From the UHGV virus genome UHGV-0077154: DNA of 13,459 bases; one strand, 5' to 3'. A program made the translations under genes and the position numbers. The notes beneath the pieces are model-generated. The model was not told the DNA's origin, made no database searches, and saw only the letters and a program-made list of their open reading frames with translations. Source of the DNA: a virus. Within the stretch, counting starts at the first letter, position 1. Each line of letters opens with the position of its first letter. Shown piece by piece: positions 1 through 13,459 of this stretch.

Positions 1-54
1 GAACGAGAGCTTCCCAAGCTCTATACGAGGGTTCGATTCCCTTCGCCCGCTCCA
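1..54 (+). tRNA. glyU: 3' 54 nt of tRNA-Gly (anticodon CCC); the 5' ~20 nt lie outside the window
   Basis: Sequence gaacgagagcttCCCaagctctatacgagggttcgattcccttcgcccgctcca matches from memory the 3' part of enterobacterial tRNA-Gly1: anticodon stem-loop AGAGC/TTCCCAA/GCTCT, T-arm GAGGG/TTCGATT/CCCTT, acceptor 3' strand CGCCCGC, discriminator T, CCA at 52-54. One extra matching base (g at position 1) compared with the right-hand copy suggests this is the genuine gene. Confidence 0.8.
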
Positions 55-85
55 GTCTCCTGATAAATCAACAAGTTATGATTTA
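2..85. repeat. attL: direct repeat, 60 bp perfect (2-61) plus 24 bp imperfect extension (62-85)
   Basis: 2-61 is identical to 13376-13435. The following 24 bp (62-85 vs 13436-13459) differ at only 3 positions, so 55-85 matches 13429-13459 at 28/31. Confidence 0.8.
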
Positions 86-89
86 TCAG
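60..89. promoter_or_regulatory. 9-bp perfect inverted repeat CTGATAAAT-N12-ATTTATCAG just past the tRNA end; candidate recombinase binding site
   Basis: ctgataaat (60-68) and atttatcag (81-89) are exact reverse complements separated by 12 bp. Confidence 0.35.
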
Positions 90-621
90 TTAGTTACGTT
101 GCCCCGCTTTAGCAGGTACAACTTAAACTACCCATTGTTCTACGCCCGCACCTGTCGCGTGATTGGTCTGTGGTACAAGGGAGCATATCATCACGCTGGC
201 GGTGGTTCCAAGTTCTTACCGCGACAGTACAACAACGAACAAAAAGCCGCATACCTGGCATAACTCCCGAACTGATTGATCACACGCATTTAAGCCCGAT
301 GTGTGGCCCTATGAGCCACGTAAACAGGTGAATAGTGGTAATGCCCCGGTAGCTACAGATCCGGCTCTGCCAGCGCTTCGCTCACGCTCCGAAAGGTACA
401 CGAGCACCCTGATAAGGTGTGATCCATCTGACAATCTGATGATGTCGCTACGCTCCGCTTGTTGCTTGTACCACTAACGGGGCTTTATGGTTTCTATTGA
501 CTTAAATTAGATAGTTGCAAGGAAATAAACTAAGGATAATTTAAGTGTTGAGCGGTTTACTCATACTGCTTGAGGGCAGTATCATTACAACATTAATGGG
601 ATTTTTAAGGGACTGATGTGA

Positions 622-1257
622 ATGGCTGAGTATCATCCTGCGGTATTTAATGCTGAGGCTTTTAACTGTCCTTACTGCGGTGTATATGCCCGTCAGTTCT
701 GGCGCAATTTGTTTGGTAGCGGAAATGCGTTGGCAACTGTTGCGACTGCGTTCCGTATGTCAACATGTTCTCATTGTGATGAAGATTCTTATTGGTATGA
801 GGGCAATATGATGGTCCCTGCTGCTGGAAATGTGGAACTACCTAGTCCTGACATGCCTGAAGACTGCAAGTTCGACTATATGGAAGCAAGAAGCATCGTT
901 AATCTGTCCCCTAAAGGTGCTGCTGCACTCCTTCGCCTGAGTCTGCAAAAACTGATGGTCCACCTTGGCGAACCGGGTAAACATATTGACACGGACATAA
1001 AATCTCTCGTGGCTAAAGGCTTGTCTCCGTTGGTCCAAAGAGCCGCAGATATTTGTCGCATTGTCGGTAATCAGGCTGTTCACCCCGGAGAAATTAATCT
1101 TGATGATGACCCGCAATTAGCACATGGCCTCTTCAAATTACTGAATATTATTGTCACGGAACAAATTACCAGACCCAAAGAGGTTGAAAAGATGTTCAAT
1201 AGTATGCCTGAAAGGGCGTTGAAGGGTATTGAAAACAGAGATAAACCTAAAACTTAA
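622..1257 (+). CDS. Zn-ribbon plus DUF4145-like domain protein (211 aa), possible defence/abortive-infection cargo
   Basis: ORF with two CxxC pairs at the N-terminus (CPYC, CSHC). The C-terminal half has the pattern [13 protein letters not shown]...[33 protein letters not shown], which I recall as the DUF4145 signature (R-x-GN-x-a-H). Weak SD (AAGG about 12 nt upstream). Followed by a hairpin at 1263-1276. Confidence 0.6.
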
Positions 1258-1260
1258 ACT

Positions 1261-1280
1261 GAGGGGCTTAAGCCCCTTTA
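1261..1280. terminator. Palindromic hairpin GGGGCTTAAGCCCC between convergent genes; candidate bidirectional terminator
   Basis: Perfect 14-bp palindrome at 1263-1276, flanked by an A-run upstream and TTTA downstream; lies between the stop codons at 1257 (+) and 1283 (-). Confidence 0.5.
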
Positions 1281-1282
1281 GA

Positions 1283-2101
1283 TTATTCAGAAAACCAAAT
1301 TTCTGGCCGTCTAAACTCCTTATTCTCAATAAAAAACAGAATATCTTTCCAGGCTTCTTCATTTTCTTCCCAGAATTTTTGTTTTTCATTCATTGTAAGG
1401 ACTTTACTATCATCTATTAACTTCTTGAGAATAGCAGGGATATCTTTATAGGGTTTTTTCCAGAAGGCATTACGTAATTCTTCAATTTCTGCATTTGCAT
1501 CCCGAACGGGTTTTAGAAGTTCAAGCTGTTTTTCTGTATCGGTAATAGGTTTATTTCCAACCCACTGATGATAGATTTTGCTAGCTTCTTCATGATGACC
1601 CCGAAGAATTGTTATTATTGTTTTTGAGAGTAACGAGCACATGTCAAAAGTAGTAAAGTAAAACCAATCGTGTTTGATTGCGGTTAATTCATCTTTTTTA
1701 ACCCCTATTTGTTCAAGTTCACTCGAAATTGAAGATACTAATTTATAAAGATCTTTGTTTGATGTTGCTGTATCTAGGCGTCCGGTTCTGGAGGCTAATG
1801 AAATAGCTACTTCAGAAATAGGTAAGGAAACTTTTCTTAAACTATCTAAAACTTTTTCAGCATCGTTAATAGTATCTCTTAATTTTGCCTCCATGCCTAA
1901 GAGCTTTATTTCATGCCATTCAAATTGAGTAAGTACCATCAACCCGAAGCCTGTTACAATGACAACAGTCCCTTCAGTTGCTCCTATTGTCAGAGTTACA
2001 ATTACACCAGCGCCTATAAGTAGCAATGCAATGAAAAACAAAAAATTCTTTATCCATTTATTTTTTAGCATATCACTGTCACCATTACGATTAAATTTCA
2101 T
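1283..2101 (-). CDS. Hypothetical membrane protein (272 aa, or 262 aa from the second Met), AT-rich cargo gene
   Basis: Long ORF in visibly AT-rich DNA. N-terminal hydrophobic stretch FLFFIALLLIGAGVIVTLTIGATEGTVVIVTGFGLMVL predicts 1-2 TM helices, followed by a charged, helical soluble domain. A GGTGA SD precedes the second Met (start about 2071). Confidence 0.65.
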   Translation of the reverse strand: MKFNRNGDSDMLKNKWIKNFLFFIALLLIGAGVIVTLTIGATEGTVVIVTGFGLMVLTQFEWHEIKLLGMEAKLRDTINDAEKVLDSLRKVSLPISEVAISLASRTGRLDTATSNKDLYKLVSSISSELEQIGVKKDELTAIKHDWFYFTTFDMCSLLSKTIITILRGHHEEASKIYHQWVGNKPITDTEKQLELLKPVRDANAEIEELRNAFWKKPYKDIPAILKKLIDDSKVLTMNEKQKFWEENEEAWKDILFFIENKEFRRPEIWFSE

Positions 2102-2124
2102 CCAATATGAAGTAAAGTAAGTAA

Positions 2125-2334
2125 CTATTTTTCGTTCTCTGATGCCTCAAACGTCTTGGAGTGAGGGCAGGACTGGGAGCGCGTCACCAGCGTGAACAGA
2201 TAAATGTTGCTTTCGTAAGTGCAAAGCCGTTTTCCGCCCTGTAACTCTTGTTCGTCGGGGTTGCTCATGGTGATTTTTCCTGCATGAGCCGCCAGCGGCA
2301 GCAGTGCCACAACAAATAGTAAAATTTTCTTCAT
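2125..2334 (-). CDS. Small signal-peptide protein (~69 aa), function unknown
   Basis: MKKILLFVVALLPLAAHA|GK... is a typical Sec signal peptide with an AHA-G cleavage site; the mature part has 2 Cys. The track ORF 2125..2340 begins with GTG; ATG at 2334 is the more likely start. Weak SD. Confidence 0.4.
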   Translation of the reverse strand: MKKILLFVVALLPLAAHAGKITMSNPDEQELQGGKRLCTYESNIYLFTLVTRSQSCPHSKTFEASENEK

Positions 2335-3325
2335 TTCCACAACCTGCCCCGTAGGTGTCCCGGCTCTTTATCCTCCAAGTTTACATTCTCCTGTTGAAAA
2401 TATCCCCGGCTCTGTTGGTGATCTGCTAGACCGTCAGCCCAGGCCCTCGGTGAAAAGCGCTTTTCTTCGCCAAATATCGCTACGTTATGCCTTCAGCGAC
2501 ACGCCTCACTGCAACAAGCAGTGCAGTTACACAATGCTGCTTTGGGCTGAGGCAAGGGAGATAACTTGATGTTTTGAAGTGCCTCTGTTCACTAATTGTA
2601 CAACCATTTAACATATTGTATCTTATAAGTACTTGACTGGAATGGTCAGGTATTGCTTTTCGGAGCGTTGATGCGAAGCGGAGTACACAACAACGATTTG
2701 ATCAACAGAAGGAAAGCATTCGGGAGGATTTGAGGTGAGTTCTCTTGTTCAAGGATTTTGGATGAGTTTGTCCGGTCACCACACAATTTCAGGTTTCAGG
2801 CCTTTGAAGCTGCCAGCGCATCTAACACGATGAAAGAGCATTTTTCTCTTTATCAGCAGAAAAAGAGCTACTACGGCGACGTTACCACAACGGGGTGAAG
2901 AACTATCGTCACCTGGCGAAATTCTCCCGCCCTTGCAGGTCACGGATACGTACCTTTTCCCGCACCAGCGCAAGCCTTCTCACCAATAGCCCCGTATGCT
3001 CCACCAGAAGCGCTACAGCGCGTCATCTCCACACAATTGTAAACTACACACCCATAGCACAGCGCCCCGCTGAGAAGCTCTGACACGCCCAGAAATGGAT
3101 GGTTTTTCGTTGATTTTGCGAAGAAAATTAATTTTTTCGGTATGGAAGGGCGGATCGGTAAACTGGTTTGACACGCATTTGGTTGACATATTTAACGCAT
3201 CCAGCCCCTGCGCGGGTTCGTTGTGTATCCGATACCATAACGATCACCACACCACACAGGCGAGCCAGTGACAACAGACAGGATTTTCTAGCAATTAACC
3301 GCAATTAACAGGTATTAAAGCTCTA

Positions 3326-3697
3326 TTATTTCCCGCCGAAAATCCAACCGATGATGGCACCGATTATCGCAGAGCGGGTCTCACCTGCTGCTCCTTTGAG
3401 AACGTTAATAACTGCATCGCCTGCACCAGGTGCCTGCTGTTGAAGTAAATTCAAACCACGAGGTGTTAACTTGGCGGCGGTATCCATGTCGGTTGAAGAG
3501 ATTATCTCCGTGTAACCCATATCGCTGAGAGCCTGGAGTGTGTTGCAAAGCAGGTCAATCTGAGTTCTGTCTCCTCTGGGCTTCCAGCCGAAGTCTGAAA
3601 ATTCGAAAGAAGAGTAAGCCGGATAGTCCGCAAACAGTTTCACCAGGATTCCAGTTGCCATCTCGTTAAAGCTGTCTTTGCCTTGGACGAATTCCAT
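3326..3697 (-). CDS. Hypothetical protein (123 aa) with C-terminal Gly-rich hydrophobic tail (tail-anchored?)
   Basis: Good SD (AAAGGAAA, about 8 nt upstream of ATG on the minus strand). C-terminus SAIIGAIIGWIFGGK looks like a single TM/GxxxG segment. Transcribed divergently from the iteron/promoter control region. Confidence 0.6.
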   Translation of the reverse strand: MEFVQGKDSFNEMATGILVKLFADYPAYSSFEFSDFGWKPRGDRTQIDLLCNTLQALSDMGYTEIISSTDMDTAAKLTPRGLNLLQQQAPGAGDAVINVLKGAAGETRSAIIGAIIGWIFGGK

Positions 3698-3821
3698 AAT
3701 GTTTCCTTTTGTTCACTGATTGAACGAGGTTACTTACTTACCGCTGGAAGTGCCAGCAAGAAGGGATGACGCTGTGCTGTTAATCACTAGGTGAGGGGGT
3801 GTCTTCTACCAGAGGGGAGGC

Positions 3822-3916
3822 CATTGGTAAAGAATCTTAACTAACGTTAGTAAAGATCCTTAACCAGCCATTAGTAAAGAATCTTAACTAACCATTGGTA
3901 AAGATACTTAACCGTA
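3822..3916. repeat. Four tandem ~24-bp iterons (consensus about CATTG-GTAAAGA-ATCTTAAC), followed by an AT-rich stretch (3917-3970)
   Basis: GTAAAGA recurs at 3827, 3850, 3874 and 3898 (spacing 23/24/24 bp), with conserved flanks cattgGTAAAGAatcttaac. Downstream AT-rich DNA contains TAGATCA x2 and CTATATCA x2. Confidence 0.7.
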
Positions 3917-3985
3917 CTATATCACTTACTAGATCATCTTTAGATCACTGCCTATATCAGTAAAAACATTAAGGTCAAAGACAGA

Positions 3986-4001
3986 TTGAACATGCGTTCA
4001 A
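3986..4001. promoter_or_regulatory. Inverted repeat TTGAAC-ATGC-GTTCAA, operator-like
   Basis: 6-bp arms are exact reverse complements with a 4-bp spacer; located in the divergent control region. Confidence 0.35.
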
Positions 4002-4296
4002 TTGTTGGAGTTGTTAGGTGTTATGTAGACAGGCTTCGCCTGTTTACACTCTGTGTGGAAGACAAGCGCAAGCGCGTCAGTCCAATGTGGATCGAGCACG
4101 GCGCAGAGGAGCTTTAAACGCGACGTAACTCCCCCCTTGGAGGGGCGGCGCACCCCCCTCAACCCTGCGCTCTAACAACATCTCTAGAGTCCTCTATCGC
4201 GTTCTGAGCGTCTTTCTCTTATTGTTGGTGACTTTGTACCGTTCCGCTTACAGCGTTGAATCTGAAGCGTCTGAGAGCGTTTTGTGATTACGGGGC

Positions 4297-4410
4297 TTGA
4301 CAAAGAAAATGTATGTGTATAAGGTTGCGGGGTATTGACACAAAACATTTATATCTCTTTATTCATTAAATGAGTTATCGGTTGACAAAGAAACTAATTT
4401 ACTATAAAAT
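4297..4410 (+). promoter_or_regulatory. Three tandem TTGACA-containing repeats/promoters upstream of the rightward operon
   Basis: TTGACAAAGAAA at 4297-4308 and 4382-4393, TTGACACAAAAC at 4335-4346. The third has a good -10 (TAAAAT at 4405-4410, 17-bp spacer); the first has TATAAG at 4318-4323. All are oriented toward the CDS at 4469. Confidence 0.55.
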
Positions 4411-4468
4411 ATATATTATCAAATGAGATGATTTTATGACTAAACAATAACTTAAATAGGAGAGATAC

Positions 4469-4897
4469 ATGGGGAAACCTGTTCTGTTCGATTTCTCGAG
4501 CGCCACTGCCTCAGAGATTGTCGCTGCAATCGATGCAAAAATTACCACAGCTCAAAATCTGCACGCCTTCCGCACTCGTATGGGTGGTGCCAAGAAAGCC
4601 GATAAGCTCTATCCAGCTACTCGCGAAGCACTGAACATCATTAAACGCCTGCGTCAGCAAGCGAAAGACGCAAAAATCATCCGGGATATTCTTAAACCGT
4701 ACTCAGCAGAGTTGGCAAAAGGCCGTGATGTTATGGAAATCATTGAACCAGTGCTGTCTGCCTGGCGTGTCTATTACGCCTCTCATGGCATTGGTTTGAT
4801 GAATGAGCAGATCCTCCTGTTGAAAATGATTGAGGCGGGCGGTGAACTCGAAGGTATTACCGGAAAACCCATTCCCGAACTGACCACAACCGAATAA
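4469..4897 (+). CDS. Hypothetical protein (142 aa), first gene of rightward operon
   Basis: Strong SD AGGAGA with a 5-nt spacer to ATG; no family recognised. Confidence 0.7.
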   Translation: MGKPVLFDFSSATASEIVAAIDAKITTAQNLHAFRTRMGGAKKADKLYPATREALNIIKRLRQQAKDAKIIRDILKPYSAELAKGRDVMEIIEPVLSAWRVYYASHGIGLMNEQILLLKMIEAGGELEGITGKPIPELTTTE

Positions 4898-5072
4898 CCA
4901 TTCTCTTCTTTACGGTGCGAAGCACTTTACCAGAGGTAAACACCTCCGGTGCTATTAGCTTTACTCTGTTGGCAGCAACGCCACCAAACGAAATCGCCGT
5001 AAACACGGCTCCTTACCCCTGATCAATTCCATGATCGCAGGGGCGCACCCGCATATCTAACGCACAGGAGAG

Positions 5073-5264
5073 ATGATTGTGAAACTGTCACTAGACGATG
5101 AAACATATGCAATTTTACGCGAAGAATCTGACCGTTTGGGGATGCCAGTTCCGAGGATGATCCGGAACATGTGCCAGAACCTGGCGAAACACATTCAGAA
5201 ACGCAATGAACAACCACTGACGAACCCACAGGGAGAACAACATGACAGAGACAGTAGAAGCTAA
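5073..5264 (+). CDS. Ribbon-helix-helix-like small DNA-binding protein (~61-63 aa)
   Basis: IVKLSLDDETYAILREESDRLGMPVPRMIRNM fits the beta-strand plus two-helix pattern of CopG/Arc/MetJ-type RHH proteins. GGAG lies 8 nt upstream of GTG at 5079, which may be the true start rather than ATG at 5073. Confidence 0.55.
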   Translation: MIVKLSLDDETYAILREESDRLGMPVPRMIRNMCQNLAKHIQKRNEQPLTNPQGEQHDRDSRS

Positions 5265-5886
5265 TCTGCCAGACGAACAGGACGGCACTTTTGATCGCAA
5301 TTATACCGAGATTAAGCGCTTGAAAGTGTTGGTTGCCGACGATGGAACTAAAATTCCGTTCAGCGCGAACATGAAAGTAGTCTACGCCTACCTCTACACC
5401 TTCCAGACAAATAAAGAGCGGCGGAACTACCCTGAGCCAATTTATCCTAATATGGAAATAATCGCGTGGGAAAATGGCATTACTAAACCCACGGCGCAAA
5501 AGGCTGTGGATGATTTGATGCGGGCGGGGGTGTTGATTAAGGACCAAATTCAGGTTGGGAGCGGGTTTAAGTCCAACAATTACGTTGTGTTGAAACCCTC
5601 GAAAGTGGTGGCGCGTGGCGTCACTCCACCGCATCCAAATGCTTCTAAATATTCAACTGCCGAGGAGAGCGGTAAGAATGAACAAAAACGTGCTGTGGTG
5701 GAACCTGCCGCGCCTGTTGCTGGAAAACCAGACGGCATACCTGTTGTGGATATTCCTGTCGATGCTGATGTACCTGCCGATGATGATGCGGTGATCGGAG
5801 ACTTTAGTGATCCTTACCTTGATGCTGAAGTAAAAGAATGGCAGAAACAAAAACATAGTGGAGGATTGAATTGTGTGAACACGTAA
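5242..5886 (+). CDS. Putative winged-helix-like DNA-binding protein with acidic C-terminal tail (214 aa); candidate iteron-binding initiator or regulator
   Basis: SD GGGAGAA 4-5 nt before ATG; overlaps the upstream gene by 23 nt. Segment MEIIAWENGITKPTAQKAVDDLMRAGVLIK resembles a wHTH; C-terminus is D/E/P-rich (DIPVDADVPADDDAVIGDF). Function is inferred only. Confidence 0.6.
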   Translation: MTETVEANLPDEQDGTFDRNYTEIKRLKVLVADDGTKIPFSANMKVVYAYLYTFQTNKERRNYPEPIYPNMEIIAWENGITKPTAQKAVDDLMRAGVLIKDQIQVGSGFKSNNYVVLKPSKVVARGVTPPHPNASKYSTAEESGKNEQKRAVVEPAAPVAGKPDGIPVVDIPVDADVPADDDAVIGDFSDPYLDAEVKEWQKQKHSGGLNCVNT

Positions 5887-6347
5887 GCGTTGAACTGACC
5901 GCAGATGAAGAACAAAAGCTATCTCGCCTTTTCTCCGTCCTGGAGAAACCGACATATAAATCCCGATCCAAACCTTCCGATCCGGAAACACAACGCAAAG
6001 CCCGTTTATTGCTTAATCGTGGATTTTCACCGCATATTGTCGCTAATACCCTAGATCTGCCGTTCGCTGAAGTCTGGCGGCTCGCACGTCAAAAACAAGC
6101 GGTGACCTGGGCGATGATGACACCGACAGCCCGGACAGAATTTGTCCGTGAAATGTGGTCACATCGGATGCACCCGGAACAGATCCGCAAGCGTTGCGAT
6201 GGTCTGTCATACGTCAGTCTGAGATATTACCTGCATAACGCCGGGATCACTGACGCTGAAATGTTGGGTTACTACCCAGACGTGTTCGTGAATATCTGCA
6301 AGCTGCCGACAGTGAAGAAGAAGCGCACTAAGTGTAAGGCCCGTTAG
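5871..6347 (+). CDS. Hypothetical basic protein with HTH-like segment (158 aa)
   Basis: TTG start 6 nt after GGAGG (5860-5864), overlapping the upstream gene end (coupled translation). KARLLLNRGFSPHIVANTLDLPFAEVWRLARQ is HTH-like; lysine-rich C-terminus. Could be a regulator or a small-terminase-like DNA-recognition protein; not resolved. Confidence 0.55.
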   Translation: MCEHVSVELTADEEQKLSRLFSVLEKPTYKSRSKPSDPETQRKARLLLNRGFSPHIVANTLDLPFAEVWRLARQKQAVTWAMMTPTARTEFVREMWSHRMHPEQIRKRCDGLSYVSLRYYLHNAGITDAEMLGYYPDVFVNICKLPTVKKKRTKCKAR

Positions 6348-6349
6348 GG

Positions 6350-6365
6350 TGAACGTTAACGTTCA
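6350..6365. promoter_or_regulatory. 16-bp perfect palindrome TGAACGTTAACGTTCA
   Basis: Exact self-complementary 16-mer immediately after the stop codon at 6347; shares the TGAAC/GTTCA half-site with the palindrome at 3986-4001. Confidence 0.4.
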
Positions 6366-6511
6366 TCACTTTGTGACCGGATCGCCAATCCAAATAATCC
6401 CACATCGGGAGCCAATGAACTTTGAAGCAATCCTTTCTTACCTGCCCGTTGTCTGGCTGGCGTATCGCTGCGTCCGTGATGGGCTGATCCTACTTTGGAG
6501 ACACCATAAAA

Positions 6512-6892
6512 ATGACATTGAACAGCATTAAAAATGCTCTGTTTGCCGCTATGCACGGCATGACACCGGAGGAATACGAACTCCAAAAGGCGCGGGACAA
6601 TCTCAAGAGCGTCACCGATAACTTTCTGGATCAACATCCGGAGTTGCTCAAATCAGCCTCGTCTGACACCCCCACGGATAAACGGGGCGAAGCCCTCTCG
6701 CCAATGCGAGACACCTTTGGTGCTGAACAACGGATTAAAAAATCTTTGGGCGCTGATAGCCGTCCGGCGGTAAGTCATACCGCTGATCACATCGATCCTG
6801 AAATGCTGGCGAAAGCTAAAGCAGCGGCTGCTGCTCTCGCAAAATCTGACCCTGATCGTTACGGCAATATCATCAAGCAGCAGGGGGTGTGA
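6512..6892 (+). CDS. Hypothetical protein (126 aa)
   Basis: ORF with GGAG about 11 nt upstream; its stop overlaps the start of the next gene (GTGATGA), suggesting translational coupling. Ala/Lys-rich C-terminus. Confidence 0.55.
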   Translation: MTLNSIKNALFAAMHGMTPEEYELQKARDNLKSVTDNFLDQHPELLKSASSDTPTDKRGEALSPMRDTFGAEQRIKKSLGADSRPAVSHTADHIDPEMLAKAKAAAAALAKSDPDRYGNIIKQQGV

Positions 6893-9036
6893 TGGCGAAT
6901 GGCAATATCATAGTGACTGAAACCGTAAACGAGGTGACATGGTCTGTCGATCGGACAGCCTTCGGTCGCGCCCTGAAAGCTGTTAAATCCATCAAGGCTG
7001 CTCATGAGAAACCAGCTAAGGCGCTTGAGAAGGCCCAGAAGCGGACCGTCCAGAGTGAAGGCAAAGCCGCACTAGCAGCAGCGAAAGCCCAGACAGCGAA
7101 GCTACGCCAGGCTGAACAATTGTCTAAACAGCAACAGAAACAAGCTCAGATACAAGCCAAAATGGAGCGGGACGCAGTAGCCCACGCCAATAAAATGACC
7201 TCATTACAGGCGCGTCAGTTATCCCAACAGGAACAGGCAGCACGTCAGAATGCCCGTTTAGCAGCAATATCTGAAAAGGTGAGACAGGCGAGTCGCTCCC
7301 GCGCGATGACCTACACCCCAAACATGGGCGGTCAACATTACGATCCTGGTCTTGTTTCCCGTCAGACTGACGCAATGAACCGTGGTCACGGCGCTGTTGC
7401 TGCCGACATCGCAGCCACCAAAAAGGCGATGGCCCTGGAGGAGAAGCGCCAGCGTGAGAAAGAGGCAGGACTTAAGCGTGAGGTGACTTATTACAACAGT
7501 TTGCGCCGTAGCGCTTTGACTCTGGCAAACGTGAACGGCGCTGACGTTGCAACCCGTTATAAAGCGATCAGTGCAGCAAAAGAGGCACTCAAAGCCCAGA
7601 AAGAAGAGCGTTATACGGTCGAAGAGACCCGTTTCGAAATGGCCCGTATCACTACAGAATTACGCAAGCAGGCTCGTCTGCAACAACGTATTACCCGTGA
7701 GCAGAAAGCCGCAGGTGTTCGTGCTGGTCGTGTACGCACAGAAAGCCGTGGTGGAAGTGTAGGTCTGGCTGCCGCTGGTGTTGTTGGTGGTGCGGCGTTA
7801 GTAGGTAGTATGGGCGTTTCTCGTGTTGGTCAGACCCTTCAGGGAAGCCTTGAGCGTTCTCGCGATGTGAAAAAACTCCAGCAGTATGGGATCAGCAACC
7901 TTGAGTTCGCAGCACTTCAGGATCTATCAATGAGCCGTGTTGGTTACTCACTGAGTGCTGACAAGCTGGCTGACCTCAACAAGGACACAACCGAAAAGGC
8001 CGGGGAATTGCTGAATACTGGCTCTTTCAAACGTAACAAGAAAACTGGACAGGTGAATTTCAGCGGCGGTGGTGAGTTTGCAGATATCATCAATAACGTA
8101 CTGACCTCCACCAACGGCAACCAGAAGGTAGCCCAAAAGGTGATCGGGGAACTGCAAAAACTGGATTTTCCAACATTTATCACTTATCTAAAGCAATTAC
8201 AGAAAACTTTCGGCTGGACTGATCGACAGGTGCGACACCTGGCCGAGGCTGTGAATGATGGTTCGGTCTTCCTCGAAGTGTTCAATGATGAGGGGCAGGG
8301 ACTTATCCAGCGTATGAATCAACTCGCTTCTGAAGGATGGACCCTATCTGATGCACAGCAGGCCAACCTTGATAAGCTGGCAGCTTTGGGTGCTGAGTAC
8401 AGTCGCGTGCAGATGTCGCTTGCTGACCACTTCAGCGCCAGCTTCGTGCAGGGTCTGGGAGAATATGCAGCTAATACTGACACTCTACGTCAGAAGATGA
8501 CTGGACTGATCCCAATTTCCGATGCTCTCGGCGTTGCCCTTGGTGAGCTAACCACCAACATTCTCTCCTTCGCTGGTCGAGTCGGTGAAGAACTCAAGAA
8601 AGGCGCGACACTGCCGGATGCAGTCTACAACACCGTAGTGGATGACTCTGCAAATAGCACCGCCGATTGGATTAAGGAAAAGACCGGATTTGATCCACGC
8701 AGCATCGGTCAGACGCTCAAACAGATTTACCCGTGGCTGGATAGTTTCGCTCCGAGCAATATCGGCTCAGGCACGGCGTATAACGATCCAGCGCTAGCGT
8801 TGAATGTTCCTGGTTTCAACTCAATACAACCCCAGCAACCAACGTTTACGATTCCGACAATTGACAGCATGACGCAGCGACAGCCGATTCCTGTTGCGGT
8901 CACTGGCGAAGCTGAGATTAAACTCTCACCGCTTGATATTAACGTGAATGACGGCGCTATTAACGGTTTGATTGATACAAAACTGAGGAGCTATGAGCAG
9001 GCACAGAACAACATGATCCTTGGTATTGCTCAATGA
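6889..9036 (+). CDS. Large coiled-coil protein with central Gly/Ala-rich hydrophobic segment (715 aa); tape-measure-like or scaffold-like structural protein
   Basis: N-terminal ~270 aa are A/K/Q/R-rich heptad-like repeats (KAQTAKLRQAEQLSKQQQKQAQIQAKMERD). Central segment GGSVGLAAAGVVGGAALVGSMGV is TM-like. Sits immediately upstream of the D/E-like capsid genes. ATG at 6892 is the more likely start (GGGGG 4 nt upstream). Assignment is by architecture only. Confidence 0.55.
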   Translation: MMANGNIIVTETVNEVTWSVDRTAFGRALKAVKSIKAAHEKPAKALEKAQKRTVQSEGKAALAAAKAQTAKLRQAEQLSKQQQKQAQIQAKMERDAVAHANKMTSLQARQLSQQEQAARQNARLAAISEKVRQASRSRAMTYTPNMGGQHYDPGLVSRQTDAMNRGHGAVAADIAATKKAMALEEKRQREKEAGLKREVTYYNSLRRSALTLANVNGADVATRYKAISAAKEALKAQKEERYTVEETRFEMARITTELRKQARLQQRITREQKAAGVRAGRVRTESRGGSVGLAAAGVVGGAALVGSMGVSRVGQTLQGSLERSRDVKKLQQYGISNLEFAALQDLSMSRVGYSLSADKLADLNKDTTEKAGELLNTGSFKRNKKTGQVNFSGGGEFADIINNVLTSTNGNQKVAQKVIGELQKLDFPTFITYLKQLQKTFGWTDRQVRHLAEAVNDGSVFLEVFNDEGQGLIQRMNQLASEGWTLSDAQQANLDKLAALGAEYSRVQMSLADHFSASFVQGLGEYAANTDTLRQKMTGLIPISDALGVALGELTTNILSFAGRVGEELKKGATLPDAVYNTVVDDSANSTADWIKEKTGFDPRSIGQTLKQIYPWLDSFAPSNIGSGTAYNDPALALNVPGFNSIQPQQPTFTIPTIDSMTQRQPIPVAVTGEAEIKLSPLDINVNDGAINGLIDTKLRSYEQAQNNMILGIAQ

Positions 9037-9132
9037 TGAAACAGAGGGTGGCGAATTCGTCGCCCCTATCTCAACACCACAATGCGTATGTATCAAATTT
9101 AGCGACAAATCAAATACTTTTCGTGAAATTTG

Positions 9133-9161
9133 TTGTAAATGATAATCATTCGTGTTAAAAT
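9133..9161 (+). promoter_or_regulatory. Sigma70-like promoter (TTGTAA-17-TAAAAT) overlapped by a Fur-box-like element
   Basis: AATGATAATCATT at 9138-9150 matches the central 13 of the 19-bp Fur consensus GATAATGATAATCATTATC (14/19 overall); -35 at 9133-9138, -10 at 9156-9161. Confidence 0.4.
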
Positions 9162-9167
9162 AATATA

Positions 9168-9542
9168 CAAGGTGAATTACAACAGCCAAATGTTTTTCCC
9201 TTCTCCTTAGGAATCAAAGTGCGCTTTTCCCAGAGCGCCTTTTCTCATACAGCCAATATCCGCACCCTCTCACGGTAAGGTTAGGCCATTGCCGCTGGCT
9301 GTATCAGAAAAGCATCGCAGAGCGATTAGCCAGCAGGCTAACCCGTTCTCGTGTGTAGAAAATTTCCACCTAAGGTGGATTTGCCAAAAGTCCTGTCCTC
9401 CTCGGCGGGCTGTCAGCCGGACACTAACGGCATCAGGTGGCAACGTTTTTGGGTCTCCTTACCCATTCTTTGGAGCGTTGCCGCCTCCTCATTCCTACCA
9501 GTGAAATTCACACCGGACGACTCTCCGTCCGGTCACTTTTTT
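9168..9542 (+). ncRNA. Candidate non-coding transcript/leader between the Fur-box promoter and a strong terminator; possibly a short ~80-nt form ending at a weak hairpin (9221-9246)
   Basis: No credible ORF here (the track ORFs are R/P-rich with no SD). Several hairpins: TTAGCC-AGCA-GGCTAA, TCCACC-TAA-GGTGGA, GCGCT-N8-AGCGC followed by CTTTTCTC. Ends at the intrinsic terminator 9513-9542. Confidence 0.3.
9513..9542 (+). terminator. Rho-independent terminator
   Basis: Stem CCGGACG (9513-9519), loop ACTCTC, stem CGTCCGG (9526-9532), then TCACTTTTTT. Confidence 0.7.
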
Positions 9543-9610
9543 CATCGGAACAATTCTAAAGGCTGGCCCTGTCGCCGTTTACGGCTCAAGCAGGCGCTGG
9601 CCTTTTGTTT

Positions 9611-9622
9611 ACATAGCTATGT
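9611..9622. promoter_or_regulatory. 12-bp perfect palindrome ACATAGCTATGT about 22 bp upstream of the D-like gene SD
   Basis: Exact self-complementary 12-mer; candidate operator/activator site for the capsid operon. Confidence 0.35.
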
Positions 9623-9645
9623 GAAATTTAACGGGAGTTAATTAT

Positions 9646-9987
9646 ATGAAAATGGGAAGCCTTGAGCGCTCTTACAATGACGTGATCGCGTATGCAGCCG
9701 ATCCGAATTTTGACCGCAAGACTATTACTGTCGATCTAGCTGTAGAAGTCCAGCCGGGTAGTTGCATTACCAGCACTGGAGCTGCTTATGTCTCTGGTGA
9801 TGACTGCCTGCTGGTCCTGAGCCACCACAGGGCCGAAGATGCTGCTCATATCATCGTTGCTGATCGCGGGATTTACATCAAACAAGACACCATCACCGCT
9901 GTTATGGGCGCTACCGCTGGCGCTAATGCTATTGCCGCACTCACCAAAACGGGCGCAATCCGTACTAGCGCACCGGACGCAGAATAA
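9646..9987 (+). CDS. Lambda gpD-like head decoration protein (113 aa), tentative
   Basis: Size (113 aa vs 110 for lambda D), position directly upstream of the E-like gene, and a Gly/Ala/Thr-rich beta-type composition (TITVDLAVEVQPGSCITSTGAAYVSGDD...TAGANAIAALTKTGAIRTS). SD GGGAG 8 nt before ATG. Confidence 0.45.
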   Translation: MKMGSLERSYNDVIAYAADPNFDRKTITVDLAVEVQPGSCITSTGAAYVSGDDCLLVLSHHRAEDAAHIIVADRGIYIKQDTITAVMGATAGANAIAALTKTGAIRTSAPDAE

Positions 9988-10005
9988 TAATAAGGAGAAG
10001 ACAAC

Positions 10006-11040
10006 ATGGGACTATCAACCAATTTCAGCTACGCGGATTACACCAACACCTTTGTGAACATGGATGCAAAGAACACTTTGCTGTCCACGCTTAATGTTTT
10101 CAGTGATCGTCAGACTTCTGCAAGTCCGAAGGTGAGCCTCGATATCATTGATGAAGTCGCTCAGAAGGTGGCAAGCTCTGTTAATCGTTACGGTTCAGAG
10201 TGGTCAACCATTCCTAAGCGTAGCGCTAGCAATCACCTGATTGAAGCTCCACTTTATGCTTTTCAAGACCGGATTACAGCGGCAGACGTGCAACCATATC
10301 GCAAACCAGGCTCCGACCTGCAAATGTCTGTAATGGATGCGGTCACTTCTTCTGCTGTCGCAATGCACGATAAGTACATGCGTACTAAAGAGAAAATTTT
10401 CGCTGACGCACTCTTCCGAAATACTGTCGAAGCGACCTACACCCAGCAGCCGATCATTTCCTGGGAAGATGAATTTGGATACCAACAGGCAACCGGAACG
10501 ATCAAAACCAGCGTTAGCTCTGGTGACCCACTTCGCAGCCTCGATGATGCAGTAACCGCTGCTAAAGTGCGCATGGGGGGCCTGGCTGGTCAGCTTGATG
10601 GATTTATCCTGTTTGCAGGTAGCAATGTTTATCGCGGCATTAAGTATCACCCTGATGTTCGTCAGAATGTTCAGTTCGGTGTGCTTGATCGGGATGTTCT
10701 GTTTAATAAAGAAGTGCTTCCGGCATTCTCAACATTCATCATTGAAAATGTTCGAGTGGTGGAGGTCACGGATCAGGCACTTTACGGAATTGGTCCGGAT
10801 GAATCCTTCCTGGTTCCACGTTTCAGCCGCCCACTGTCCTCTGATATTGCTCTACCTTTCGGTTATGTAGCAACGGCTACCAGCCGCAATCTTGATCTGG
10901 CATTTGCTGATCCGGTTGATTTCCGTATCTGGAGCGTACAGGACAAGTTTAAGAACGTGGAGCTATTCGCGGAAAGCTCAATCTTGCCTGTGGTGTACCG
11001 TCCGGATTTCGTTACAAAACTGACGAACGACGCAGCGTAA
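10006..11040 (+). CDS. Major capsid protein, lambda gpE-like family (344 aa)
   Basis: Strong SD AAGGAGAAG. Length 344 aa vs 341 for lambda E. C-terminal region ...VVYRPDFVTKLT resembles lambda E ...LADPDEFVSVQLA. Gene order decoration-then-capsid as in lambda. A hairpin at 11053-11074 (TGGGGC-N10-GCCCCA) follows the stop. Confidence 0.6.
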   Translation: MGLSTNFSYADYTNTFVNMDAKNTLLSTLNVFSDRQTSASPKVSLDIIDEVAQKVASSVNRYGSEWSTIPKRSASNHLIEAPLYAFQDRITAADVQPYRKPGSDLQMSVMDAVTSSAVAMHDKYMRTKEKIFADALFRNTVEATYTQQPIISWEDEFGYQQATGTIKTSVSSGDPLRSLDDAVTAAKVRMGGLAGQLDGFILFAGSNVYRGIKYHPDVRQNVQFGVLDRDVLFNKEVLPAFSTFIIENVRVVEVTDQALYGIGPDESFLVPRFSRPLSSDIALPFGYVATATSRNLDLAFADPVDFRIWSVQDKFKNVELFAESSILPVVYRPDFVTKLTNDAA

Positions 11041-11121
11041 GACAGCGGATTTTGGGGCTGACTATTTGGCCCCACCGTGAAGAATGGCCTGAAAAGGCGA
11101 GGCAAAGAAGAGGTGATTACT

Positions 11122-11325
11122 ATGAAAATTCAATTTCAGACTAACAACGGCTTCCCGTTGCTGACAGTTGCAGACGAGCGCGTTTTAGATTTTCTGAACG
11201 TTAGCGCAGTGTGTCGGTTCCTGAAGGTTCCGCGTTCCTCGTTCATGATGGACGTTGAGCAATACGGGCTTGAAAAGGCAATCAGTGAAGCCCTGCTGAA
11301 GTTAAGAAAGAATAAAAATTGTTAA
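11122..11325 (+). CDS. Hypothetical small protein (67 aa)
   Basis: ATG at 11122 preceded by GAGGTGA with a 5-nt spacer; the track ORF's upstream Met at 11077 has no SD. No family recognised. Confidence 0.5.
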   Translation: MKIQFQTNNGFPLLTVADERVLDFLNVSAVCRFLKVPRSSFMMDVEQYGLEKAISEALLKLRKNKNC

Positions 11326-11379
11326 TAATCAATCTGTTGGTATTTGTTGTCAAAAGAATCATTGTGTTTGTTTTTCGCG

Positions 11380-11450
11380 CATTTACTTGACACTATGATG
11401 CAGATTGCGTAGGCTGAACATAAAATAATTGACTATTCTATATTCAAACC
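11380..11450 (+). promoter_or_regulatory. Putative promoter region for the small AT-rich cassette
   Basis: TTGACA at 11387-11392 with a weak -10 (TAGGCT, 17-bp spacer); AT-rich surroundings; precedes a strong SD at 11499-11504. Confidence 0.3.
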
Positions 11451-11509
11451 GGACTTCAACTTGAGAATGCTTCGTTCCTACATCTCCCTTCAAGGGGTAG
11501 GAGGATTAT

Positions 11510-11719
11510 ATGAACTTTGATATGCGTACAAACCAAAATTGTGCATCTTTTTTTAACCCAGCAACCAAGGCGTTTGTCGTCGTCGATTCGTTTGACAACT
11601 ACGAGTTCGATGTTCGTGCTGGTACTTTATCACGCACTGAATTTGTAGGCACAATCACAGCTTCGAACGATGAAGAGTTGAACAAGAAATTAGCTGAGAT
11701 CACGGCTGCTCATATATGA
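11510..11719 (+). CDS. Hypothetical small protein (69 aa), cargo cassette gene 1
   Basis: Excellent SD AGGAGG with a 5-nt spacer; AT-rich codon usage; stop overlaps the next start (ATGA). Confidence 0.65.
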   Translation: MNFDMRTNQNCASFFNPATKAFVVVDSFDNYEFDVRAGTLSRTEFVGTITASNDEELNKKLAEITAAHI

Positions 11720-12090
11720 TAACTCAACAGCAAATTGATGATTTAGTTGCAGATATTAACGATATCTTAGAAGAAGATAGAGCTAGACTGAAGATGTCAT
11801 TTCATTTTGCTGTTGATAGACTCAATGATCAGCGTAACAAACCTCCAATCACGCTAGATGAATTGAGAGTGATTTTTACAAATTTCATTGAACAACACTT
11901 GCAGACCATTTTAGGCAAAGATGAGGGGTTCTCCTTCACTATTAAGTGCCAGAAATCAGGTATTGCTATACCTTGCGCCATAGAGCATGAACTTGAGATT
12001 GGTGCAACGTGGGTAGTACAGCAAGTGATCACCATCATGCGGAATCCGAACTTTAACCCATACCATGGTGATGTCATCTTCGAAATCTAA
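11716..12090 (+). CDS. Hypothetical protein (124 aa), cargo cassette gene 2
   Basis: Translationally coupled to the upstream ORF; AT-rich; followed immediately by a strong intrinsic terminator. Confidence 0.65.
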   Translation: MITQQQIDDLVADINDILEEDRARLKMSFHFAVDRLNDQRNKPPITLDELRVIFTNFIEQHLQTILGKDEGFSFTIKCQKSGIAIPCAIEHELEIGATWVVQQVITIMRNPNFNPYHGDVIFEI

Positions 12091-12092
12091 GT

Positions 12093-12118
12093 AAAAAGGC
12101 GCAATAGCGCCTTTTTTT
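12093..12118. terminator. Bidirectional rho-independent terminator (AAAAAGGCGC-AATA-GCGCCTTTTTTT)
   Basis: Perfect GGCGC/GCGCC stem with a 4-nt loop, flanked by an A-run and a T-run; sits between the convergent cassette gene 2 and integrase 3' ends. Confidence 0.8.
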
Positions 12119-13313
12119 ACAAATCCGGATAACACGCCAACTCGACATACTCCGATAGTTCCTTCATCCCTGGCCCTTTGCTGTAGGTTCTGAATGCTTC
12201 GGTTTTCGCTTTTTGTTCGGTATGTCCAGTGATGGCTCCGATCCGTTGTTCTGGCACCCCTGCACGGTCTAAGCAGGTGATGAACATTCCCCGTAAGCTG
12301 TGAAAACATTGCCGATCTGTAGCGGTTGGCAATGTGCTGTCACGTAGCCGGGTAAACTTTTGGCTGTACCACGGACCCCGCTTACCATCCTTCCGAATGA
12401 TGTTATTAGACTGAGCCAGAAGATATTCACCGCTGTTATTTGCCAGATGCTTATCAACAATCCCCATCAGCAGCGAGTGGATCGGAACATACCGCACCCC
12501 GGCTACAGTCTTGGACTTGCTGACAAAGAAACATCTGACACCCTCCAACATTACAATTTCATCCCGCTTGATGCTGGCGATCTCATCAAGTCGCATTCCT
12601 GAATACAGCCCAATCAGTATGACATCGCGTAGAACGTCATCCGCTTCTCTGACAAGTGTTTGCAATTGTTCAGGTTCAAACGGCTGATAACTTTCTATCG
12701 TGCGACGTGCTTCGAGGTTATGACCGTGAAACGGGTTACTGTCGGGGATTGCGTCATATCGACGTTTGGCGAACTCGTACAGACTCCCTAAAGAGGTTAG
12801 CCAGTTTTGCACGGTCTGCGGTGCTGCCTTTTTCTGTTGGCCTTCAATGAAGTCTGTAACCGTTCTGCGTCCTATCTTGTTCAGACTAATATCAACTTTA
12901 CCGATACTCTGGAGAAATACTTCCACCGCTCGCGCGGATTTGCTGAGTGTGGAAAATGCCCGACGTTCACTATAAACCGTCATGTATTCATCACGGATGA
13001 CTGCCAACGTTGGGATAGGGGAGACTGCTACAGGCGTACTCTTGGCCTGTTTGATTGTGGTGTGGAGTGTGGTGATCGCATTCTGGATGCGAATGTCTTC
13101 CCGATCAGGATTCAACAGGGCTTTCAGATTGTTGAACTCAATCAACATGTGATTTCTGAAGTGACGAGCCTTAAGGATGTCTTTTGTCCCGGTGGATTTT
13201 CGCCAGGCTCGTTTGTTGTCAAACAGGTGACGCATGTACGCAGGTACAAAGACCTGAAAGATCCATACGCCCGAATGACTTTGAAAAAGATACTGATTGT
13301 TCTTGATAGACAT
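12117..13313 (-). CDS. int: Tyrosine recombinase / phage-type integrase (398 aa)
   Basis: C-terminal catalytic motifs: GMRLDEI (Arg box I), HSLRGMFITCLDRAGVPEQRIGAITGH (H-x-x-R box II), FRTYSKG (catalytic Tyr). SD AGAGGA about 8 nt upstream of ATG; gene lies next to attR. Confidence 0.9.
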   Translation of the reverse strand: MSIKNNQYLFQSHSGVWIFQVFVPAYMRHLFDNKRAWRKSTGTKDILKARHFRNHMLIEFNNLKALLNPDREDIRIQNAITTLHTTIKQAKSTPVAVSPIPTLAVIRDEYMTVYSERRAFSTLSKSARAVEVFLQSIGKVDISLNKIGRRTVTDFIEGQQKKAAPQTVQNWLTSLGSLYEFAKRRYDAIPDSNPFHGHNLEARRTIESYQPFEPEQLQTLVREADDVLRDVILIGLYSGMRLDEIASIKRDEIVMLEGVRCFFVSKSKTVAGVRYVPIHSLLMGIVDKHLANNSGEYLLAQSNNIIRKDGKRGPWYSQKFTRLRDSTLPTATDRQCFHSLRGMFITCLDRAGVPEQRIGAITGHTEQKAKTEAFRTYSKGPGMKELSEYVELACYPDL

Positions 13314-13375
13314 GATTTCGATCCTCTAAAATCACGCCATCAGGTACAGCCATATGTACAATGTCGGGATGGAGT

Positions 13376-13459
13376 AACGAGAGCTTCCCAAGCTCTATAC
13401 GAGGGTTCGATTCCCTTCGCCCGCTCCAGTCTCCTCATAAATTAACAAGTTATAATTTA
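13376..13459. repeat. attR: partial tRNA-Gly 3' copy (60 bp perfect to 13435) plus imperfect extension to the window end
   Basis: Identical to 2-61; the sequence upstream (caatgtcgggatggagt) does not match the tRNA 5' half, so this is the truncated copy. Confidence 0.8.

Follow-up and report, generated by a model that had tools for sequence, protein, structure and literature searches.

The first gene of the virus genome UHGV-0077154, an open reading frame (ORF) of 211 amino acids (aa), appears from its homology to be a functional allele of RAZR, the anti-phage defence system also known as PD-T7-4. We analysed a stretch of 13,459 nucleotides (nt) of this genome, hereafter the window. The window is one integrative, satellite-like island of 13.3 kb, with two unrelated accessory genes at its tRNA-proximal end. 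One is the RAZR gene at 622-1257 (+); the other is the ORF at 1283-2101 (-), which encodes a membrane protein of an unnamed family, here called TM262 after its probable length. An earlier interpretation, made from the letters of the DNA without database searches (hereafter the sequence-only reading), had placed the two convergent ORFs at these same positions. The overall explanation that we favour, with a probability of about 0.82, is that a functional RAZR allele and an independent cassette of an unnamed family travel on the island as unrelated cargo. The positions of the features are collected in Table 1.

Identity and state of the RAZR gene

The PADLOC model for PD-T7-4 (PDLC04109) matched the 211-aa protein at E 4e-98, with residues 1-209 aligned to positions 1-209 of the 211 in the profile. 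One solved structure in the Protein Data Bank (PDB) matched, namely chain OA of 9y9c (RAZR), and the gapless alignment had 159 of 208 residues identical (76%; E 1.9e-111). The full-length PD-T7-4 match together with the 76% identity to 9y9c identifies the protein as RAZR; RAZR has already been named as a defence system and its mechanism solved, and the protein is hence not new. The sequence-only reading did not recognise the named system, albeit its description of the protein was accurate in the rest. It had proposed a stand-alone DUF4145 protein with an N-terminal CxxC...CxxC ribbon, related to abortive-infection proteins and located next to an attachment (att) site. The Pfam check for DUF4145 (PF13643) returned a match over residues 88-163 (E 3.9e-13; 49.7 bits, cut-off 23.1), the N-terminal ribbon consists of C16-x2-C19 and C49-x2-C52, PD-T7-4/RAZR is an abortive-infection family, and the gene adjoins the 84-nt repeat at tRNA-Gly(CCC).

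PD-T7-4 was found by functional selection in E. coli (Vassallo et al. 2022, PMC9519451), and was given the name RAZR, for "ring-activated zinc-finger RNase", in the work that solved its mechanism (Nature 2026, PMC13017515). According to the latter study, the protein of E. coli UMB1727 (RAZR-Ec; structure PDB 9y9c) defends as a single gene under its own promoter in MG1655, is non-toxic by itself, and assembles from HEPN dimers into linear oligomers. It is known to be triggered by the portals of T7, T3 and SECphi18 and by the Erf-like Gp77 ring of SECphi27. The zinc-finger domains encircle these large phage rings to give a 24-mer with a bent oligomer, and the activated HEPN sites cleave single-stranded RNA (mRNA, tRNA and rRNA), which leads to a stop of translation and aborted infection (PMC13017515). 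Because RAZR-Ec, 76% identical to the window protein, has this published mechanism, we ascribe the same to the latter. The protein would idle as oligomers of HEPN dimers until a phage makes a large ring protein, around which the Cys4 zinc-finger domains would bind. Binding would turn the oligomer from linear to curved and thereby switch on the R146/H154 RNase sites, and the ensuing non-specific cleavage of single-stranded mRNA, tRNA and rRNA would stop translation and abort the infection.

The residues that such a mechanism employs are kept in the window protein. In an alignment of 121 homologues, C16, C19, C49, C52, R146, N150, Q151 and H154 were all invariant. The stretch R146-IVGNQAV-H154 is the same as in RAZR-Ec, and the four cysteines, the AGN linker motif at 68-70, R146, H154 and the interface residues V21 and R184 are likewise kept between the two proteins. 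The ratio of nonsynonymous to synonymous divergence (dN/dS) was 0.1 for the whole gene and 0.03-0.05 in the HEPN core; the gene is under purifying selection. An identical protein, annotated as "MULTISPECIES ... Enterobacteriaceae", occurs in at least 24 contigs from several Enterobacteriaceae species, and in at least seven of eight places among the matches listed it was found in the same island at the same tRNA.

None of the five mapped trigger-contact residues is shared with RAZR-Ec, and D179/D180, which in RAZR-Ec help the contacts between dimers, are altered to T179/E180, so that the copy in the window might be taken for a decaying or inactive remnant. Nevertheless, the ORF is intact and of full length, its zinc and catalytic residues are invariant, and neither a dN/dS of 0.1 nor the presence of the identical protein in so many contigs and species fits decay. 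The differing positions are, moreover, the hypervariable ones of the family, and T179 and E180 are common variants (50 and 56 of the 121 homologues, respectively). We therefore consider a remnant very improbable, and continue to read the gene as a probably functional allele. The promoter candidate upstream of it (Table 1) came from a consensus scan in which the number of sites was no higher than in shuffled sequence.

Sensor loop and exchange of RAZR alleles

The contacts of RAZR-Ec with its triggers, R29, Y31, R35, T41 and E43, correspond to N29, F31, N35, A41 and A43 in the window protein. In RAZR-Ec, the changes R29A/E and R35E abolished defence against both classes of trigger tested (PMC13017515). 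Among the 121 homologues, the mean column entropy was 2.99 bits for residues 29-43 versus 0.33 bits for the HEPN core (residues 80-170), and the five contact columns had 2.9-3.6 bits. Since all five contact residues differ and lie in a hypervariable loop, the window allele probably has a trigger range different from that of RAZR-Ec, whose specificity is a property of one allele and does not define the family. Positive selection in the loop was also sought as a dN/dS above 1, and was not demonstrated: the values obtained were 0.2-0.3, above those of the core and below 1, with dS saturated.

The island of E. coli 2016C-3878 (L001; we number the loci compared with an L and individual TM262 family members with a P), which lies at tRNA-Thr beside proA, is collinear with window positions 264-11434. 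Between the two islands the TM262 gene is 98.5% identical in DNA and the RAZR gene 79.5%, and the divergence of the latter is concentrated in its body, between near-identical flanks (Table 1). This pattern demonstrates that a deeply diverged RAZR allele was swapped inside conserved flanks.

The right end of the island also differs between the two. Over window 11434-13459 and L001 24973-27000, the integrase has 40% aa identity, L001 has tRNA-Thr beside proA as its target, and the phrog_14630 and phrog_14518 genes at window 11510-12090 give way in L001 to a GNAT acetyltransferase. From these differences in integrase, target and right-end genes, the integration module and the right-end cargo slot were likewise swapped. 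At window 2900-3300, identity to the E. coli island drops a second time, to 52-75%, within DNA that is otherwise 97-100% identical. This stretch holds no ORF with a database match; a variable region with regulatory elements or small genes is one possibility.

Table 1. Features of the window and their positions. Identities and dS (synonymous divergence) refer to the island of E. coli 2016C-3878.
Feature	Position	Strand	Remark
attL	2-85	+	84-nt direct repeat: 3' part of tRNA-Gly(CCC) plus ~30 nt
Left flank of RAZR	401-600		97-99% DNA identity
Sigma-70-like promoter candidate	556-585	+	TTTACT-18-TATCAT; 37 nt before the RAZR start codon; consensus scan only
RAZR / PD-T7-4 gene, 211 aa	622-1257	+	PADLOC, PDB and Pfam matches
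Zinc-finger sensor domain, aa 1-65	622-816	+	
RAZR gene body	701-1100		67-81% DNA identity; whole-gene dS 1.13
Hypervariable sensor loop, codons 29-43	706-750	+	includes the trigger-contact positions known from RAZR-Ec
Linker, aa 66-79	817-858	+	
HEPN-like DUF4145 RNase domain, aa 80-211	from 859	+	
Right flank of RAZR, including the membrane gene	1201-2600		97-100% identity; membrane-gene dS 0.03
GC-rich hairpin between the convergent genes	1255-1285		overlaps both stop codons
TM262 membrane protein, 262 aa	1283-2071	-	frame open to 2101 (272 codons); probable start M11
sec71 small secreted protein, 69 aa from ATG at 2334	2125-2334	-	upstream of TM262, same strand
Rep/O-like initiator	5242-5886		
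Tape-measure-like protein, 715 aa	6889-9036		
113-aa gene			immediately upstream of the major capsid gene
Lambda-E-like major capsid protein	10006-11040		PF03864
Tyrosine integrase	12117-13313	-	island end opposite RAZR
attR	13376-13459		partner copy of the attL repeat

The membrane protein TM262 and its family

The sequence-only reading had described the ORF convergent with RAZR as AT-rich and as encoding two transmembrane (TM) segments, and both features were recovered: the GC content of the ORF is 33.9% (26% at third codon positions, GC3), that of the window being 46.9% and that of RAZR 45%, and hydropathy and AlphaFold2 each gave two helices. Translation most likely starts at M11 (position 2071) to give 262 aa, because M11 is invariant in the family, several homologues begin at the equivalent position, the NCBI annotation has 262 aa, codon 1 of the frame is Ile in the E. 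coli orthologue, and a GGTGA lies 7 nt 5' of M11. Hydropathy placed the hydrophobic helices at residues 20-40 and 46-63. The AlphaFold2 model, built on an alignment of 51 sequences, is all-helical (mean pLDDT 92.3, pTM 0.72) and has the TM helices at 15-38 and 41-59. Because there are two TM helices, the first preceded by five Lys/Arg, both the N-terminus and the all-helical C-terminal domain of ~200 aa should be cytoplasmic.

A profile search of 1.84 billion representatives recovered 556 clusters at E<=1e-3 and 192 at E<=1e-10, clusters being defined at 50% identity. Nearly all members have 255-285 aa and match end to end, and their source names are all "hypothetical protein". TM262 is thus a real, widespread and unnamed family. 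The conserved motifs are FK.FG.EAEL, EAD..L..LR..S.P.SE and AR.GR after TM helix 2, K.DW and D...P in the middle, and FRRP..W at the C-terminus. The N-terminal membrane anchor is a two-helix hairpin in TM262 and in most of the members listed. A few members (P0099 and P0108) carry other anchors in place of the hairpin, so that the soluble domain is what defines the family; the longer members contained no informative domain fusions.

Searches in annotated libraries returned little. TM262 had no match in Pfam, NCBIfam or PHROGs, including the SLATT/two-TM effector, holin and superinfection-exclusion families, and nothing better than E 0.02 in PADLOC v2. For 51 diverse members, PADLOC v2 gave only scattered single matches at E>=7e-4, and no two members matched the same Pfam family. 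Against PDB sequences only a chance-level match to an ion channel was found (E 0.047), and a Foldseek search with the model against viral structures gave nothing at E<=0.001. Neither tblastn against 50,697 deposited phage genome records nor a search of IMG/VR detected a match, a scan of species-representative genomes found one locus only, a capped profile word-search contributed little, and a literature search by the protein accession retrieved no papers. In the libraries searched, TM262 is without annotation and without recognisable fold relatives.

Independence of TM262 from RAZR

The stop codons of RAZR and TM262 are 25 nt apart, and the distance is spanned by the hairpin at 1255-1285, which is a probable bidirectional terminator. 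Its folding energy is -12.7 kcal/mol (z -2.84), and two of 200 shuffled sequences folded equally well; a terminator scan did not call it (weak T tract).

To the sequence-only reading, both genes looked like accessory cargo, and the membrane protein seemed a possible independent effector of abortive infection or superinfection exclusion; our comparisons support the cargo status and the independence. Since related islands hold other genes in the same slots, RAZR and TM262 are both exchangeable cargo; in the RAZR slot, a 244-aa (phrog_31894), a 171-aa or an 88-aa gene was found instead, with functions unassigned. RAZR-like DNA was detected in 324 of 5426 complete E. coli genomes and the TM262 gene in 22, all of which have the same island, so that 302 of the 324 RAZR-positive genomes are without TM262. 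In addition, the two genes have had separate histories, because in the same island pair the dS of TM262 is 0.03 and that of RAZR 1.13, and because their GC contents are 34% and 45%.

Could the two genes nevertheless form one system, with RAZR as sensor and RNase and the two-TM protein as a second effector, an anchor or a regulator? They are adjacent, converge at a distance of 25 nt and share a hairpin, the pair recurs in two island lineages that are ~23% apart in DNA (the window and L001; L008-L011), and in complete E. coli genomes TM262 never occurs without RAZR. However, RAZR alone defends and is non-toxic alone in the published work, TM262 is missing from most of the RAZR-positive E. coli genomes as counted above, and homologues of TM262 are found in the absence of RAZR in L002-L007, L023, P2-like prophages and other islands. 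The ~40-fold difference in dS between the genes in the same island pair and their different base composition also argue against a common system, and convergent genes do not make an operon. A two-gene system is largely refuted by these observations, and we give it hardly any weight.

The sampled contexts of TM262, ~11 in number, are diverse. In P2-like prophages, a homologue lies between the tail genes gpS and gpV, in the slot that holds the nonessential orf30 in P2. Other homologues adjoin a cyclase-TIR fusion and a type II methyltransferase, share a contig with an integrase, PycTM and Mrr, or adjoin Mrr and DUF6602 between IS91/integrase pairs. Defence genes were found within one to three genes in five of the contexts (the window, L008, L014, the P0032 contig and L034). 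In L017 the homologue is beside a beta-lactamase-family gene, and in L018 it lies in a Pantoea chromosome. From its patchy occurrence in islands, prophages and insertion sequence (IS)/integrase cassettes, it is well supported that TM262 is an independent, horizontally moving single-gene accessory cassette, which is how we treat it below.

One further context needs a caution. L023 (CACSKA010000001.1) is titled Chryseobacterium sp. 18061; it contains proA/proB of enterobacterial type, an Hcp-like gene and a TM262 copy of 90% identity, and the assembly is probably mislabelled or contaminated.

Possible functions of TM262

The contexts described above offer guilt-by-association of moderate strength for a role in phage conflict, and no proof of mechanism. 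Judged from context only, TM262 may act against phages too, albeit we rate the chance as somewhat below even. If this is the case, the cytoplasmic domain would be the sensor of infection and the TM hairpin the part that acts on the inner membrane, the output being either an exclusion block or an abortive-infection effector; phage exclusion is a plausible guess. It is attractive, if still more tentative, to speculate that TM262 founds a new and widespread family of single-gene anti-phage proteins, in which a cytoplasmic sensor of new fold is coupled to a membrane anchor that effects exclusion or abortive infection, and which has spread among satellites, P2-like prophages and defence islands.

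Alternatively, TM262 may be unrelated to phage defence and serve in membrane stress, lysis timing or satellite transfer, or be a neutral passenger. That TM262 lacks similarity to the known defence proteins in PADLOC, that several contexts contain no defence genes (L017 and L018), and that a homologue lies inside the late tail operon of P2-like prophages are consistent with such a role. On the other hand, the gene is patchy and AT-rich and occupies exchangeable satellite, prophage and IS/integrase slots, as is typical of conflict genes, and known defence genes are one to three genes away in five of ~11 contexts. As for lysis, TM262 exceeds the length expected of a holin, and its surroundings lack an endolysin gene. 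On balance, a function outside defence is a possibility to be taken seriously, short of a probable one.

Several findings weigh against our overall explanation of a functional RAZR allele and an independent cassette. Of the three oligomer-interface residues tested in RAZR-Ec, two are changed in the window protein (D179/D180 to T/E). In the libraries searched, TM262 has no homology to a known defence, exclusion, holin or effector family, it has neither an informative structural neighbour nor a match in deposited phage genomes, and no catalytic-looking motif is conserved in its alignment. The contexts sampled were few (only ~11), and L017, L018, L022 and L033 are without a recognisable defence gene.

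The small secreted protein sec71

Upstream of TM262 lies a gene for a small protein, which we call sec71, with a predicted signal peptide ending in AHA|G and two cysteines. It matched phrog_4641 (E 2e-8), and may be co-transcribed with TM262. Both proteins could be imagined as one envelope module, in which periplasmic sec71 and TM262 in the inner membrane together block the entry of phage DNA, after the logic of Sp plus Imm in T4. In favour of this idea, the genes share a strand and are separated by 53 nt (23 nt if counted to the upstream ATG), TM262 is directly preceded by sec71 or its 3' remnant in L001, L008, L002 and L023, and sec71 combines a signal peptide with membership of a phage protein family, phrog_4641. 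Nevertheless, GC3 is 60% for sec71 versus 26% for TM262, which argues for separate origins. While L001 and L008 have sec71 with TM262, L002 and L023 keep only 3' remnants comprising the last 26-40 codons, and these resemble a recombination scar rather than a working partner. sec71 also occurs away from TM262: a second copy is present in L002 at 14111-14323, in another island, and the E. coli genome H25 carries the sec71 segment without TM262 (at least one such genome among the matches listed, plus 13 partial matches). Finally, sec71 was absent beside the distant TM262 homologues in the contexts sampled. We thus regard the envelope module as unlikely, and retain TM262 as a single-gene cassette.

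Two observations on this position may be added. The sole match of sec71 among deposited phages was in Citrobacter phage Tr1, at 42% identity. In L007 (7355-7981), a degraded relative of the island, the place of sec71 directly upstream of TM262 is held by a UDG-superfamily protein (208 aa; PF03167, E 3.8e-9), which has no PADLOC match.

The island

The two copies of the att repeat are 96% identical. An Rfam search found the tRNA at 1-51 with its 5' end missing, and a complete tRNA-Gly(ccc) precedes the identical island in L024; in the assemblies with the identical island, the complete tRNA-Gly(CCC) lies ~570 nt 5' of the first island gene. Besides the integrase, the initiator, the tape-measure-like protein and the capsid gene (Table 1), no portal, terminase or tail genes were found in the window (1-13459). 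The island looks like a phage satellite, albeit to our knowledge it cannot be placed among the P4-like, PICI, cfPICI or PLE elements, and a literature search on this kind of island retrieved nothing specific.

Four tandem repeats of ~24 nt each (GCCATTGGTAAAGAATCTTAACTAAC and variants), with a palindromic core, occupy 3820-3916, within the space that separates the divergent genes 3326-3697 (-) and 4469-4897 (+). These repeats may represent iterons or operator sites. In one metagenome contig (L031, 5936-7186), the identical island directly follows another DUF6538-type integrase and a Dit-like tail gene, which suggests tandem elements at the same tRNA.

Significance

The RAZR of the window is a naturally occurring allele whose sensor loop is entirely different, and alleles of this gene are swapped as cassettes. 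Together, the window and the E. coli island provide a ready pair, with near-identical flanks and diverged alleles, for the question of how the zinc-finger loop sets the range of triggers. As no portal gene was found in the island, this satellite-like carrier of RAZR presumably relies on the ring-shaped portal of a helper phage, and the question arises whether its RAZR allele must avoid that portal. TM262, for which the alignment is good and the model confident, offers defence screens a well-defined candidate family.

Comparison with known systems

CBASS, Pycsar, retron and SLATT-type two-TM effectors resemble TM262 in that a short TM hairpin is joined to a cytoplasmic domain and in that they are found on mobile elements with defence neighbours. 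TM262 differs from them in having no sequence match to any, in that no signal-generating partner such as a cyclase or reverse transcriptase is conserved beside it, and in that the soluble domain is conserved in the family while a few members have swapped the hairpin for other anchors. The resemblance to Orf30 of P2 is one of place and size: TM262 homologues hold the same S-V slot, and both are membrane proteins of ~261-264 aa. Orf30, however, is encoded on the opposite strand, with hydrophobic stretches at its two termini, and remote homology between the two was ruled out (hhalign probability 0.4%).

The RAZR of the window shares with RAZR-Ec its length, the Cys4 zinc ribbon, the conserved linker and the HEPN-like DUF4145 domain, and both are single genes on a mobile element beside its att or integrase end. 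They differ in location: the gene of the window is at the tRNA end of a satellite-like island, whereas that of RAZR-Ec overlaps an integrase gene. Canonical HEPN RNases have an Rx4-6H motif and a dimeric composite active site (Anantharaman et al. 2013, as cited in PMC13017515). RAZR is similar to them in its alpha-helical domain, in an Arg...His pair needed for activity and in a HEPN-like dimer (PMC13017515). In contrast to the canonical enzymes, the spacing in RAZR is R-x7-H, its activity needs a higher-order oligomer bent round a phage ring, the dimer being insufficient, and Pfam classes the domain as DUF4145. The pairing of HEPN and zinc finger in a single-gene defence protein also occurs in DS-38 of the DefensePredictor preprint (10.1101/2025.01.08.631726). 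According to that preprint, only the HEPN domains of DS-38 and PD-T7-4 align, while their zinc fingers differ. By this description, the protein of the window is set apart from DS-38, and its match to PD-T7-4 extends over the full length.

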